Below, piece by piece: positions 43,936 to 56,611 of a DNA stretch of 64,000 nucleotides. A program made the translations under genes and the position numbers. Origin of the DNA: Eledone cirrhosa. Its lineage: Eukaryota. Under the pieces are notes generated by a model. It made no database searches. It was given only the letters and a program-made list of their open reading frames with translations, and was not told the origin of the DNA. The stretch covers positions 26,412,001 through 26,476,000 of the forward strand of contig OZ024762.1 of assembly GCA_964016885.1 (NCBI GenBank). Reading direction: 5' to 3'. How positions within the stretch are numbered: the first letter of the stretch is position 1; every line of letters starts with the position of its first letter.

Positions 43936-44039
43936 GTATGTATAGAGATGTAAGTGGGTGTACGTTGAGATGCGTGGCGTGTATAAGACGTGTAGAGGAA
44001 TGAAGGAAAGAGCGTAAAGGATATAAATAAAAATAAAAA

Positions 44040-46780
44040 CACGTGATAGAGTTACTTTGGGAGAGATTTAATTGTCCCTATATATTTCGGATTCACTCCA
44101 TCAACTGGGGTTTTTTACGGGGGGCGGGGACGGTTTTCTGTCGGAAAGGTTCGAAATGTGTCCTCCGCTGTTCGTTGTTTTGAATCTCTGCGGTATTCAG
44201 CAGAGCGCGCATGCGCGTGAAATGGGGTCGGTCAGGCAGAGGTCAGCGTCCGAAGTAGTTCTTTCAATTGTGGGAGTGGGGTGGCGCTAGCTGTCAGTCC
44301 ATTCTCTGCCTGTTTGGTGAATATTACTGTGTGTGTGTGTGCGTGTGTTTTTGTCTCGCTTGAGTGTGTATGTGTGTGCGTGTGTTGTTGCCTCGTTCGT
44401 CTGTATTGGCAGTGTACTATGTTCGTATGGTGGAATGCTACTGTGTGTGTGTGCGTGTGTTGCTGTATCGCTTGTGTGTGTGTGTGTGTTGCCGCATCGT
44501 TTGTTAACTTAAACCAACCACCTCATTTCGCTTCTCTCGGATCGGCTGTTTAGTTGTGGCCCTAGGCGTTTGATCCAAAGTGCTTCCTTGATACGTAACG
44601 TGCCGACGTTTCTTTCTGTCGCTAGAATTGTGACAACGGGCCTTCCGTCGTTGTTTCCGCATTTGGCTATGTGTTTCCGGAAAAACGAGGCCCTGGTTTT
44701 AGTGTGTTCCTTGATCTGGATGTACAACGTCCGGATTGTGCTACCTATATAGTATTGGTCGCACTTGTTACATTCTATCTCATACACGACGTATGTGCGT
44801 AGGCAACAGTTCGCATGGCGCATCGGCCAGTCTCTGACGGAGCACGCGTCAGGTGATTTCCCGGGTTTCCTGGAGAGGCATCTTCGCAGGGAGGGGCCCG
44901 AGTGGGCCAGGTGGATGTCGATGCCCTCTCTTCGTATAGCCTTGCGGATAGCGTTGGTGGTATTCTCGTCCAGGTGTGGCATTTTAAGGAGGCACTTAAC
45001 TTGGGTGCCTCTTTGTCTCTTGTGTCTGGTGTCTCATACTCTGTCTGTGAGCGAGGTAGGGTACCCGTTCGTCTACAGCACCTCGAGGAATCGCTTGGTA
45101 TGAGTGACACCACTCGCGGGATCGCTGCATCTGTTTTTGATTCGCGCGATCTCGTTCGTGATGTATCCTCTTTTGGCACTGTTGGGGAGGGCGGACTTGT
45201 AGTGGACGAACAGGTCCCCGCAGGCTGCCTTTCGGTAGAACTTGCAGTGGATCCCTCCCTGTTCCGTGATGTTGATTCGGAAGTCGAGGAGGGCAAGTGA
45301 CCCGTCGTCGTTGGGGTGTTCAATACTGAAGTCAATGTGCTCGTCCGTGTTGTTGAACGTCTCATAGATTCTGTGTGCCATGTCTTGGGAAGATGTGAGG
45401 ATGAGGATATCGTCCATGTACCTTGAGAAAAAGGCGACGGCGTTGAGTGCCTTGCGCTCGAGGCTGTCCATGTAAGATATCGCTAGCACACCCGACAGGC
45501 TTGATCCCATGGGCAGTCCCGAGGTTTGTTGGTATGTTTGGTCAAGGAATCCGAAGTAGGTGTTGTCGACGACGATGGATAGGAGTTGGTGGATGTCAGT
45601 GGTGGTGAGCCTGAAGCAGTGTAAGTCGGTGGATTGGACGCGTTCCATCAGTATATTGACGGCCGGGAGTTCCGGGACCGAGGTGTAGAGAGGGACTACA
45701 TTAAGGCTGAAGGCATATCTGTTATTCTTTCTGGTGTCGGGATCCATTTGATGCAGGCGCTTCAACACCTCCTCGGAGCTGTTAACGTGTCCCGGCAAGG
45801 TGTCTAAGATGGGTTTGAGTATTCTGGCTAGGAGCCATGAAATTTTGTGGAGTGGTCCTTCCACGCTCGATACAATGGGACTGATCTTCAGGTCGAGTCC
45901 CTGTTTGCGTGTTTTCACGAGGTGGTAGAAGGCGGGTAGTCTGCTGTTTCTCGTGAGGACGTTGTATCTCAGCTTCTTTGGGAGCTTCCGCCGGTCGCAG
46001 TTGTTGGTCCAAACGGCGTTGATGGGCTCTTCTATCTGCACCGGAGTGATTCCCGTGACCTTGGAGTAGAGGTTGTCATCGGCAAGGTGCTGGAGGGCCA
46101 AGGTGTTGTAGGCCTCTCTGCTGTTGACGCAGAATTATTTTCATTTGTTGGAGGGGAGGTAGATGAGATTCTTCGATTTTAGGTTGGAGAGAGTGGTGAG
46201 TTGAGATTTGGTGAGGTTGTGTGTTGTGCGTGTGTGTGTGTGTGTCTGTGTTTGCGAAGTATATCCGAGATGGAGTGTTTTAGCCGGATGAGTTTAGTGT
46301 CGAGTTCGTGGTTGGTGAGTGGGGGTGGAGTGGGTTGTCGGGGTGGGAAGTGGGGAACTTGTCTGTGAGCGAGGTAGGGTACCCGTTCGTCTACAGCACC
46401 TCGAGGAATCGCTTGGTATGAGTGACACCACTCGCGGGATCGCTGCATCTGTTTTTGTGGCGCTGTTGATGGCGGTCACCCATTTAAGTTGGTAAGCGGC
46501 TCGACAAAAGTTGGCCTCGATGTTGAGTTTGAGTCTGTCGTTGAGTCGTTGTGAGACGATGAACTTGGGTCCGAGGTGTAGGAGTTTCAGCTCGTCGCTC
46601 GTGAGAGTGCCGGTTAGGTCGGTGACCAGGTGCGTCGCATCGTTGAGGTGTGGCTCGGTGTTGGTGGATGCGGCGGTGGCGGTTGTTAAGTTGTTGTTTT
46701 CCACGTGGTTCTGGTCCGTCTGTTCGTTAGTGTCGATGTTCTCGTTGTAGAATTTAGACAAGATCCACTCATATTTCCGA
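44040..46780 (-). mobile_element. Penelope-like retroelement, near full length, disrupted
   Basis: RT 45073-46101 ('LPAFYHLVKT', 'ISPIVSS', 'SLNVVPLYTSVP', 'YQQTSGLPMGSSLSGVLA', 'SRYMDD', 'LALLD', 'FYRK') followed by a C-terminal GIY-YIG; (TA)n on both sides. Confidence 0.9.
44509..44982 (-). pseudogene. GIY-YIG endonuclease domain of the Penelope-like element
   Basis: 'YVVYEIECNKCDQYYIGSTIRTLYIQIKEH ... RIKEALWIKRLGPQLN'. Confidence 0.85.
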
Positions 46781-46842
46781 TGATATATATATATATATGA
46801 GAGTATTGAAGTTTGCTTCAAGCATTGTGGAATAATAAATAA

Positions 46843-49230: not shown

Positions 49231-49380
49231 GGAGAGAAGGACATCTTAATTTGAATCACGTAAATATTCAAATTCTTATCACCGTTCGTAATATTTAAAG
49301 AAAAAAAGATACTATGTAGAAAAATTAGGCAGTTATAATTATATATATATATGTATATATAAATACATATATATATTAAC

Positions 49381-49416
<36 letters not shown>

Positions 49417-49473
49417 TAACATATATATATATAAATATATATATGCACACACACGCACACACACACACTACAC

Positions 49474-49523
<50 letters not shown>

Positions 49524-49526
49524 GCA

Positions 49527-51857
49527 CCGCTGAACCGGTGCGTACAATGACTCACGTTCTATGCAAATTAGTCTACCCACTACTAATTTTCATAGAAAAA
49601 GCATATAACGATATGTGCTTTTACAATTCTCCAGTGAAGCCGGAAGATGGGTAAATATTGCTGATGAGATGTAATAACATCGAAACTAGTCCAATATTCC
49701 TGTCTGGCCCTCTGGTGAATAGAGGAAATGTGTTTCCTTGAAAACCCGTATGACTCTAAAACTCGGTCCGTCTGTGTGGTTACATACAGACTAGCTGACA
49801 CTCACTGTAAAGTGTCTAGTGAAAAGCTGAGTACATGTACATATGTATACATGTGTGTATTTATATGCATACTAATACTTCCGTATACATATGTAGATGT
49901 ACACTTTAACTTAATTGTTTAAGCGTCAGTCATACAAAAGTGAGTTAGAAGCGAAACGAAATTTAATTTCGTTTCGTTATTTGTTTTTATCGTTTCCGCT
50001 GAACCGGTGCGTACAATGACTCACGTTCTATGCAAATTAGTCTACCCACTACTAATTTTCATAGAAAAAGCATATAACGATATGTGCTTTTACAATTCTC
50101 CAGAGAAGCCGGAAGATGGGTAAATATTGCTGATGAGATGTAATAACATCGAAACTAGTCCAATATTCCTGTCTGGCCCTCTGGAGAATAGAGGAAATGT
50201 GTTTCCTTGAAAACCCGTATGACTCTAAAACCCGGTCCGTCTGTATGGTTACATACAGACTAGCTGACACTCACTGTAAAGTGTCTAGTGAAAAGCTGAG
50301 TACATGTACATATGTATACATGTGTGTATTTATATGCATACTAATACTTCCGTATACATATGTAGATGTACACTTTAACTTAATTGTTTAAGCGTCAGTC
50401 ATACAAAAGTGAGTTAGAAGCGAAACGAAATTTAATTTCGTTTCGTTATTTGTTTTTATCGTTTCCGCTGAACCGGTGCGTACAATGACTCACGTTCTAT
50501 GCAAATTAGTCTACCCACTACTAATTTTCATAGAAAAAGCATATAACGATATGTGCTTTTACAATTCTCCAGAGAAGCCGGAAGATGGGTAAATATTGCT
50601 GATGAGATGTAATAACATCGAAACTAGTCCAATATTCCTGTCTGGCCCTCTGGAGAATAGAGGAAATGTGTTTCCTTGAAAACCCGTATGACTCTAAAAC
50701 CCGGTCCGTCTGTATGGTTACATACAGACTAGCTGACACTCACTGTAAAGTGTCTAGTGAAAAGCTGAGTACATGTACATATGTATACATGTGTGTATTT
50801 ATATGCATACTAATACTTCCGTATACATATGTAGATGTACACTTTAACTTAATTGTTTAAGCGTCAGTCATACAAAAGTGAGTTAGAAGCGAAACGAAAT
50901 TTAATTTCGTTTCGTTATTTGTTTTTATCGTTTCCGCTGAACCGGTGCGTACAATGACTCACGTTCTATGCAAATTAGTCTACCCACTACTAATTTTCAT
51001 AGAAAAAGCATATAACGATATGTGCTTTTACAATTCTCCAGAGAAGCCGGAAGATGGGTAAATATTGCTGATGAGATGTAATAACATCGAAACTAGTCCA
51101 ATATTCCTGTCTGGCCCTCTGGAGATAGAGGAAATGTGTTTCCTTGAAAACCCGTATGACTCTAAAACCCGGTCCGTCTGTGTGGTTACATACAGACTAG
51201 CTGACACTCACTGTAAAGTGTCTAGTGAAAAGCTGAGTAAATGTACATATGTATACATGTTGTGTATTTATATGCATACTAATACTTCCGTATACATATG
51301 TAGATGTACACTTTAACTTAATTGTTTAAGCGTCAGTCATACAAAAGTGAGTTAGAAGCGAAACGAAATTTAATTTCGTTTCGTTATTTGTTTTTATCGT
51401 TTCCGCTGAACCGGTGCGTACAATGACTCACGTTCTATGCAAATTAGTCTACCCACTACTAATTTTCATAGAAAAAGCATATAACGATATGTGCTTTTAC
51501 AATTCTCCAGAGAAGCCGGAAGATGGGTAAATATTGCTGATGAGATGTAATAACATCGAAACTAGTCCAATATTCCTGTCTGGCCCTCTCGAGAATAGAG
51601 GAAATGTGTTTCCTTGAAAACCCGTATGACTCTAAAACCCGGTCCGTCTGTATGGTTACATACAGACTAGCTGACACTCACTGTAAAGTGTCTAGTGAAA
51701 AGCTGAGTACATGTACATATGTATACATGTGTGTATTTATATGCATACTAATACTTCCGTATACATATGTAGATGTACACTTTAACTTAATTGTTTAAGC
51801 GTCAGTCATAAAAGTGAGTTAGAAGCGAAACGAAATTTAATTTCGTTTCGTTATTTG

Positions 51858-51863
<6 letters not shown>
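49527..51863 (+). mobile_element. Five tandem 469-bp units, each with a type I hammerhead ribozyme (retrozyme-like array)
   Basis: Units start at 49527, 49996, 50465, 50934 and 51403 and are near-identical; (TA)n on both sides; no meaningful ORF. Confidence 0.9.
49626..49720 (+). ncRNA. Type I hammerhead ribozyme, unit 1 (identical cores at +469, +938, +1407, +1876)
   Basis: Stem I aatattg/caatatt; CTGATGA (49661-49667); stem II GATGT-aata-ACATC; GAAA (49682-49685); stem III ACTAGT; GUC site at 49691. Extended stem I agatggg/cctgtct, gcc/ggc, attctccagag/ctctggagaat (the last perfect in units 2-3). Confidence 0.9.
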
Positions 51864-51912
<49 letters not shown>

Positions 51913-52004: not shown

Positions 52005-52376
52005 TATACAATGATATTAAATAAATGGGAACTATATTTATAAAACCATATTTATTCTATTATATATATTTCAAGGGTACCAAAATTTAGGTACGCCATC
52101 ATCAGATAAAATACAAAATGTTTCATAAATATTTGACATAACCAAGGATAATATACCTTAACGGTTCAAGTTATCCCTGGAAAGCGGATAACTTCCAGGG
52201 ATAATTTGAACCATTAAGGTGTATTATCCTTAGTTATGGCAACATTTATAAAACACACTTGGTATTTTATCTGATGATAGCGTGCCAAAATGTTGGTACC
52301 CTTGAAATATATATAATAGAATAGAATAAATATGATTTTATAAATATAGTTTCCATATATTTAATATCATTGTATA
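52005..52376. mobile_element. ~370-bp palindromic element with an HHR motif in each arm
   Basis: Arms of ~178 bp around a loop at ~52183-52192. Plus arm 52263-52323: tattttat-CTGATGA-stem II-GAAA-tatata-ta-atagaata. Confidence 0.7.
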
Positions 52377-56265: not shown

Positions 56266-56611
56266 GATATTAACAAATGGAAACTATATTTATAAAACCA
56301 TATTTCTTTCATTATACATATTTCAAGGATACCAAGTTAAATTATGGTATGCCTTCATCAGACAAAATACAATATATACCAGTTTTATAAATAAACATTG
56401 ACGTACCCTTTCAAAATGCGACCATTACTTTTGGAAGACAAAAGTAATGGTCGCATTTTGAAAGGGTACGTCAATGTTTATTTATAAAACTTGTATATAT
56501 TGTATTTTGTCTGATGAAGGCATACCATAATTTAACTTGGTATCCTTGAAATATGTATAATGAAATAAATATGATTTTATAAATATAGTTTCCATTTGTT
56601 AATATCGTATA
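56262..56611. mobile_element. ~350-bp near-perfect palindrome with HHR-like motifs, related to 52005-52376
   Basis: Arms of ~172 bp, loop gaaga (56434-56438). Plus arm: tattttgt-CTGATGA-agg.atacca...tggtat.cct-t-GAAA. Confidence 0.7.

Follow-up and report, generated by a model that had tools for sequence, protein, structure and literature searches.

The route by which animal retrozymes return to the genome, and the origin of the tail and the inverted arm of Penelope-like elements (PLEs), are matters on which published proposals disagree about the template strand (published work is cited here and below from parts of each source). For retrozymes, Cervera and de la Pena (PMC7229834) proposed reverse transcription on RNA circles with PLEs as candidate enzymes, and Li et al. 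(10.64898/2026.07.22.740005) brought forward co-occurrence and a phylogeny of pseudo-long terminal repeats (pLTRs), stating that the mechanism is still to be elucidated. For PLEs, the traits described are copies that are inverted and truncated, a tail found at a single end and a bias toward (TA)n (PMC8557442, PMC3846280). In AT-rich DNA, the enzyme of the anole PLE cuts the two strands and extends both, and the tail corresponds to the spacing of two internal reverse transcriptase (RT) start sites on the RNA (PMC11167929). In this study, we investigated a family of 469-bp hammerhead repeats that is represented by a tandem array in a 64,000-nucleotide stretch of the Eledone cirrhosa genome (C23:26,412,001-26,476,000 of a 3.0-Gb genome), which we call the window. 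We assign a probability of roughly 0.7 to a model in which the family is a retrozyme of the non-LTR type (lacking long terminal repeats) copied by a PLE enzyme from both sides of a (TA)n break, with circular RNAs as templates.

An earlier examination of the window from its letters alone, the sequence-only reading, had put the array forward as a candidate retrozyme, and the rest of the genome bears this out. A 31-nt core has 1,463 exact genomic copies (737+726) on many contigs, while its reversed control has 0, and a purely local duplication of a dead PLE end is excluded by this dispersal. Searching the genome with the whole unit gave 417 matches, with 39 of 713 candidates scored. The copies form a ladder of subfamilies that descends from 100% to about 85% identity, and a diagnostic 32-mer of the 87% subfamily has 615 further copies. 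The repeat family is young and dispersed genome-wide. In viral and metagenome contigs the core 31-mer had 0 matches.

The anatomy of the insertions is what ties the family to PLEs. We read it from 38 top-hit BLAST loci and, going through the list of core motifs by position, from 32 loci; together they amount to 69 distinct loci once L128, a duplicate of L127, is dropped throughout; a giant array (L151-L154) was kept out of the end counts. Two arms joined head to head make up 47 of these loci, 21 are single-armed, and one is a nested insertion (L135, whose second insertion is nested and which was not scored as two-armed). Outer ends fall almost entirely into two classes, with 57 of 116 at unit position 463-464 (LONG), 56 at 387-396 (SHORT) and 3 elsewhere. 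The sequence between the two sites is a tail of 69-77 nt, about 70. Outside three two-armed loci that have a non-canonical end, 43 of 44 scorable two-armed loci have one LONG and one SHORT end (binomial p 2.6e-12), and the ends are complementary in both samples (25/26 top BLAST hits and 18/18 position-ordered loci). TA tracts lie at both ends of 36/44 two-armed loci and at one or both ends of 40/44, and 13 of the 17 target duplications other than pure TA measure 12-16 bp. Because the LONG/SHORT rule, the (TA)n targets and the target duplications match the signature of PLEs, they argue for PLE-type mobilization, and we consider it very probable that this retrozyme family is mobilized through RNA by PLE machinery. 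The only LONG/LONG locus, L031, has a chimeric left arm (L031:2154-2805) whose outer unit belongs to an older subfamily (90%) and whose inner part is at 99%, which may reflect a template switch or the capture of an old copy.

Arms are pure concatemers of the unit in the aligned loci. Both arms belong to the same subfamily in 35 of 36 loci, a count from which L031 is left out, where 0.35 would be expected. Inner ends are scattered and usually differ between the two arms, and either arm can be the longer one or the one that bears the tail. We rejected a collision type of twin priming, as inner ends are not enriched at the start of the other arm (within 8 nt there are 4 and 6 of the 113, against an expectation of 4.1). 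The predicted ribozyme cut site is crossed by 105/113 arms; of the 113 inner ends, just one falls no more than 4 nt from it, where 2.2 would be expected. Given this read-through and the scatter of inner ends, single linear monomers were not the templates. Neither the two-armed anatomy nor the editing scars described next were part of the sequence-only reading, as both are visible only in other copies.

The template strand is marked by clusters of A>G changes. In L130, a locus of the positional sample, 11 A>G changes (unit 7-131) are present in each covering unit of a three-unit arm. Two further A>G scans provided 20 stretches picked for A>G. Among them L228, a single unit, carries 60 A>G among 61 non-subfamily changes, in a run unbroken across the cut site. 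L223 has a cluster of more than 20 A>G sites, and its 16 core sites are changed 16/16 in six units, which alternate with lightly changed monomers. Counted from the outer ends, both arms of L223 show the order edited-unedited-edited-unedited, and a second, four-site cluster comes after the first in 5/5 occurrences. The 5' neighbor is A or U for 100/116 edited As, compared with 97/147 for all As of the unit; a preference for such a neighbor is a trait of ADAR. A mirror T>C scan at one site returned 3 matches, none with a second change, against 8, 164, 50 and 148 for A>G sites, the large counts being partly inherited subfamily changes. Because the clusters lie on the hammerhead strand and the mirror scan is nearly empty, the template for both arms would be RNA of the hammerhead strand, and the clusters suggest that this RNA had been edited. 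For the inverted arm of PLEs, an origin by self-priming on an antisense template or by DNA fold-back has been proposed (PMC3846280). Short fold-backs do occur here, for example at the 5' end of the window array, and some inner junctions are perfect palindromes (L032, L050 and L149). Nevertheless, the ribozyme strand of both arms carries A>G and not T>C in L223 and L123, and neither the differing inner ends nor the freedom of either arm to be longer or tail-bearing fits such an origin, which we regard as highly improbable for this family.

Two haplotypes bear on the identity of the template. The L130 set is private: a degenerate scan found 8 matches genome-wide, with the triple-changed form confined to the three units of L130, and the locus has an ordinary concatemer anatomy. 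The simplest reading is that a monomer circle was copied about three times. The L223 haplotype has 4 exact genomic matches, all within L223, and is most simply read as a dimer circle that would have been primed at both sites of one unit. Across loci, private variants found in all covering units number 11/20 for A>G, against 15/156 single-unit variants (p 6e-6). The A>G set of L232 was rejected as a private haplotype, as it equals the 615-copy subfamily. An A>G ratchet along the subfamily ladder was likewise rejected, old/young transitions being balanced by inspection and distinct variants in 38 loci comprising 20 A>G and 17 T>C. We give about even odds to the proposal that the edit scars are single-molecule barcodes, according to which PLE enzymes acting as a pair start two primings, spaced about 70 nt, on a single sense-strand circle of RNA, whether monomer or dimer, and roll round it from the two ends of a staggered break.

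Copying from circles has to be weighed against a process in which PLE machinery copies long linear uncleaved multimers, with no circle, the repeats coming from source arrays, unequal crossover and gene conversion. We consider this unlikely, and several observations that weigh against circles speak for it. DNA-level expansion after insertion does occur, as shown by an arm of 65 kb, by repeated blocks in L052 and L067 and by the rearranged middle of the L223 right arm, and the repetition of scars could therefore be secondary. The edits of L227 and L231 are confined to one unit, and edits can become fixed in a DNA source, as the 615-copy subfamily found in L232 indicates. In vitro, uncleaved RNA is the main substrate of the anole PLE, and hammerhead mutants were without effect on insertion (PMC11167929). 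Linear multimers are harder to reconcile with the two arms of L223, which independently give the same private edited and unedited order over four monomers, and with L130, which is an ordinary concatemer and yet has identical private edits in each unit. No source of either haplotype is present elsewhere in this assembly, and the hammerhead and its fold are conserved along the source lineage.

Further points count against copying from circles by a PLE enzyme. L223-L242 were preselected for A>G, the T>C control is limited to one site, and without L130 the share of all-unit private A>G falls to 3/12 against 15/156 (p 0.12, not significant). The arms of L234 differ at three A>G sites, and those of L224 have mismatching patterns with no common period. 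The window's own units are not uniform at unit position 250, reading G, A, A, G and A in units 1-5 where older copies have G or T; we take the A to be a hairpin-perfecting mutation that probably recurred and spread between units. Published PLE tails measure 30-40 nt, shorter than the tail found here, and neither the PLE of the window nor any of the 50 GIY-YIG loci sampled, a small share of all PLEs here, showed a unit-like pLTR. In vitro cleavage was seen in only 1 of 9 Xenopus dimers (preprint 10.64898/2026.07.22.740005).

The cut site itself bears on whether concatemers could be made by an RT that jumps between cleaved linear monomers at their ribozyme-made ends. The cut-site C (unit position 165; window 49691 etc.) is T in 6 of 70 loci, the maximum within the hammerhead region, partly as an inherited change and partly confined to single units. 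GUC to GUU is the sole inherited change of the core, and the T may be either a tolerated GUU or a misreading at a ligation scar. In L227 (L227:3146-4775), a hyper-edited tract ends 7 nt short of the cut site, and unrelated sequence rich in G adjoins the arm at its inner end. Jumping would suit the variability of this nucleotide, and also L227, where the next two monomers are unedited. It does not suit the lack of an excess of arm ends at the cut site, the 288 core copies in 74 loci that are exact across the junction or the continuity of the L228 edits across it, and a single edit pattern such as that of L130 would not be repeated by jumps from molecule to molecule. We think that it is very unlikely to have built these arms.

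A ribozyme is predicted in each unit. As the sequence-only reading had stated, the hammerhead region is identical in 5/5 window units, with predicted cuts spaced 469 nt apart. It consists of stem I, CUGAUGA, a 5-bp stem II with an AAUA loop, GAAA, the palindromic ACUAGU and GUC, and stem III is a single A-U pair closing a palindromic CUAG loop. The proposed check against the Rfam hammerhead families (clan CL00010) had a divided outcome: the scan of the array gave no match at the gathering threshold, and with an E-value threshold Hammerhead_HH9 aligned over model positions 1-77 (31.8 bits, E 8.6e-7; gathering score 52), with all core bases present and the 5-nt stem III loop of the model absent from the unit. 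Matches to Rfam microRNAs and other sub-threshold families were far below the cut-off and driven by AT-rich stems. The long bulged stem I described from the letters is borne out by a 116-nt domain with a fold z of -5.1 (0/200 shuffles equal), and the circular monomer is predicted to fold at -159.5 kcal/mol (z -11.7, 40 shuffles), with stems I and II contained in the minimum-energy circle. Of the chain of hairpins described alongside, gacact/agtgtc is not used in the minimum-energy fold and gtctgtatg/catacagac is perfect in units 2, 3 and 5 only.

The sequence-only reading had also held that the short palindromic stem III favors a dimeric fold, and the predicted energies of a two-unit RNA agree. 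The double hammerhead (-204.5 kcal/mol) lies 1.4 kcal/mol above the unconstrained minimum of -205.9, and two single hammerheads (-190.2 kcal/mol) lie 15.7 above it, with tertiary contacts outside the model. Cleavage as a dimer is predicted, and the folding energies support the dimer model. There is precedent in axolotl HHR_Amex1, whose cleavage is poor for the single ribozyme and efficient for the dimer (PMC7229834). Older subfamilies have a compensatory change in stem II (143/154) and another in distal stem I (110/184). Pairing is kept by 24/42 inherited changes (common to at least 4 loci) compared with 56/210 private ones (p 2e-4), in a test that leaves out 8 hyper-edited, duplicate or error-rich loci, and the excess comes partly from A>G edits that leave G-U pairs; it may reflect selection on RNA structure. 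A DNA-level satellite, or a rolling-circle DNA element whose hammerhead is a dead relic, might be argued from the sub-threshold Rfam score and from the arm that is now a satellite-like array of 139 units. These compensatory changes, the PLE-type ends, the target duplications and above all the strand-specific A>G scars, which already largely refute it, leave this idea with next to no probability.

A sister family, F2 (L110:7079-10000; also L112 and L093), has units of about 480-510 nt with a GUA cut site and an internal TA microsatellite. It has the octamer hairpin, the hammerhead fold and the tail module in common with the 469-bp family, and its stems I and II are kept with different letters. 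The junction of tail to unit start is also found in F2, and the 469-bp lineage has for this reason probably long been separated from its parent PLE. The octamer-like motif (unit 35-42) was considered as a promoter; it is altered in the abundant 615-copy subfamily, which weakens that role and makes it doubtful. At C1:95620987-95687168 (L151-L154, L310-L313), a SHORT arm of about 65 kb, with about 139 units at 95-97%, stands opposite a two-unit LONG arm, and this locus appears to be a retrozyme insertion turned satellite.

The model that we favor, copying by a PLE enzyme on circular templates, can be laid out as a series of steps. The array would be transcribed on the hammerhead strand, as the A>G scars suggest. 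The ACUAGU palindromes are predicted to bring neighboring hammerheads together for cleavage, which would set free monomers along with some dimers. These would be ligated into circles; a monomer circle, having no partner hammerhead, would resist being cut again. A PLE RT-endonuclease would then make a staggered cut in an AT-rich target, the breaks in its two strands lying about 12-16 bp apart. Each DNA end would prime cDNA at one of two fixed internal sites, unit 463-464 or 387-396, where the ends of the insertions are observed. Each cDNA would cross the cut site for one to several turns and stop at random, and the 5' ends would be joined head to head, giving the anatomy that we observe. Some arms would later expand by DNA recombination, as is seen for the 65-kb arm. 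The window array would be a one-armed product primed at the LONG site.

PLEs are present in this genome, with 150 scored GIY-YIG matches among 10,595 candidates, and one of them (L099) has a 938-aa open frame with an RT followed by a GIY-YIG domain at the C terminus. The family of L099, L100, L104, L109 and L112 has a hammerhead-like motif in its pLTR, with a core departing from CUGAUGA and a palindromic stem III. Autonomous PLEs of this genome have their ends in (TA)n at two sites separated by about 38-65 nt: L105 is two-armed, with a short end on one side and an end roughly 60 nt longer on the other, both in (TA)n, and the spacing of the two ends is about 65 nt in one further family and about 38 nt in another. 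When the unit and F2 were compared by BLAST with the 50 GIY-YIG loci, only other retrozyme copies and chance matches of 15-30 nt came up. A 30-nt match in L102 was discarded as a pLTR link, as it is internal to the body of the PLE and in the opposite orientation. The end motifs of the unit look by eye like the ends of PLE-B, a likeness on which we base no claim. The window contains a frameshifted PLE of its own at 43950-46790 on the minus strand (RT 45076-46134, GIY-YIG 44512-45033), which is represented by 2,659 candidates at about 92% identity. It was rejected as the partner: it has only 13-mers in common with the unit, its ends are not where the likeness of motifs suggested, and it is older and unrelated.

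The window array (L068) is a single arm with a LONG end, and its features are collected in Table 1. Tandem Repeats Finder (TRF) describes it at 49527-51864 with period 469, 5.0 copies and 99% matches, and together with a longest stop-free frame of 84 codons this agrees with the five near-identical non-coding units first reported. The unit has a GC content of 0.35 and no RT-endonuclease open reading frame (ORF). Units start at 49527, 49996, 50465, 50934 and 51403. Relative to unit 2, taken as reference, unit 1 has 4 substitutions, unit 3 has 0, unit 4 has two substitutions and two 1-nt indels, and unit 5 has one substitution and a 2-nt deletion and ends at unit position 464. The placement of the units between (TA)n tracts stands overall, except that at the left end a short fold-back lies between the (TA)n and the first unit; this fold-back likely arose by self-priming of the cDNA before end joining.

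Table 1. Features of the 469-bp repeat array, in window positions
Feature	Position	Strand	Basis
Single-armed insertion of 4.99 tandem 469-bp units, from unit position 1 to the LONG end (464)	49527..51864	+	TRF, unit alignment
5' junction, where 6 nt (49521-49526) are a fold-back copy of the hairpin that begins the unit, with TA microhomology to (TA)n	49521..49544	.	Sequence, inner-end listing
Left (TA)n-rich target tract	49340..49522	.	TRF
(TA)n tract to the right, next to the LONG end; probable site of priming	51862..51911	.	
Predicted type I hammerhead, unit 1; cut after 49691	49654..49698	+	
Predicted type I hammerhead, unit 2; cut after 50160	50123..50167	+	
Predicted type I hammerhead, unit 3; cut after 50629	50592..50636	+	
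Predicted type I hammerhead, unit 4; cut after 51098	51061..51105	+	
Predicted type I hammerhead, unit 5; cut after 51567	51530..51574	+	
Extended bulged stem I around the hammerhead (unit 2 as example); compensatory changes in older subfamilies and F2	50096..50188	+	
Hairpin with octamer-like motif, unit 35-42 (unit 2 as example); common to F2	50026..50065	+	
SHORT end site, unit 387-396 (unit 2 as example); end of the second arm in two-armed copies, unused in the window	50382..50391	+	
Tail that separates the SHORT from the LONG end (unit 391-464, about 70 nt); contains a 13-bp hairpin	51793..51864	+	

Other features lie in the same window. At 52040-52370 and 56300-56560 there are short two-armed inverted elements whose arms each have a hammerhead-like core and a palindromic stem III; they are likely solo pLTR-type insertions of other families. 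A 23-kb G/T-rich tandem array at 20071-43485, with periods of 27, 54 and 81, has stop-free frames of up to 3,116 codons on the minus strand and is possibly a Thr/Pro-rich mucin-like exon or a satellite. A further RT fragment (PF00078, E 3e-7) lies at 28-720 on the minus strand.

The family supplies hundreds of young insertions that follow a near-strict rule of one LONG and one SHORT end, and its edited copies mark both the strand and the identity of the template. A defined 469-nt substrate with two mapped start sites is suited to the existing in vitro PLE assay. If our model is true, there is an enzyme in nature that uses circular RNA to write tandem DNA at the two ends of a break, and insertions made in this way can become the seeds of satellite arrays like the 65-kb arm. 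If the barcode reading is true, the scars would prove from genomic sequence that animal retrozymes undergo rolling-circle reverse transcription, and the tail and inverted arm of PLEs would be two primings of one event, against antisense self-priming. In a literature search, with most subscription papers and supplements outside its scope, neither two-armed insertions of retrozymes nor barcodes left by editing were found to have been reported.

Among known systems, endonuclease-bearing PLEs (PMC11167929, PMC8557442, PMC3846280) resemble the 469-bp family in their inverted 5'-truncated arm, their tail at one end, their AT-rich or (TA)n targets, their duplications of about 10 bp and a hammerhead upstream of the RT starts. 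The 469-bp family differs from them in that it has no ORF, both of its arms can be multi-unit, its tail is about 70 nt instead of 30-40, and its hammerhead is canonical and extended, whereas theirs is of the minimal pLTR type. The tail, which is present at exactly one end in 43/44 loci here, is described as "optional" or "often" present in PLEs. Non-autonomous PLEs of the MRC1 type in Chlamys (PMC8557442) are likewise PLE passengers with multi-copy head-to-tail insertions; unlike the 469-bp unit, they have a 3' end that resembles the autonomous partner, and the part of the source cited mentions no hammerhead. Newt satellite 2 and the Schistosoma satellite (PMC7229834, PMC2220036) are also tandem hammerhead repeats, and the weak stem III of the newt ribozyme works as a dimer. 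Internal promoters are reported for these satellites, whereas the octamer-like motif of the 469-bp unit is altered in an abundant subfamily.

The closest likeness is to metazoan non-LTR retrozymes (PMC7229834; 10.64898/2026.07.22.740005), which also have non-coding tandem units of low GC content with one type I hammerhead each, a strongly self-paired monomer, dispersed copies and PLEs in the same genome. Defining features of retrozymes that are present here include at least 2 consecutive hammerheads, a GC content below 50% and target-site duplications longer than 4 bp. The unit length of 469 is within the retrozyme range of 51-972 bp (10.64898/2026.07.22.740005), and stem III is like that of axolotl HHR_Amex1 in having one pair and a palindromic tetraloop (PMC7229834). 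Retrozymes shown as circles are 170-400 nt, shorter than the 469-nt unit, which is known here from genomic copies. Elsewhere the link between retrozymes and PLEs was proposed from co-occurrence and pLTR similarity, whereas the PLEs sampled here include no pLTR homologue. For metazoan retrozymes, the parts of the descriptions cited mention no two-armed insertions, fixed complementary ends or editing scars. The 469-bp family, although it scores below the Rfam threshold, has the testable features of a non-LTR retrozyme and works like a passenger of PLEs, not like an autonomous PLE.

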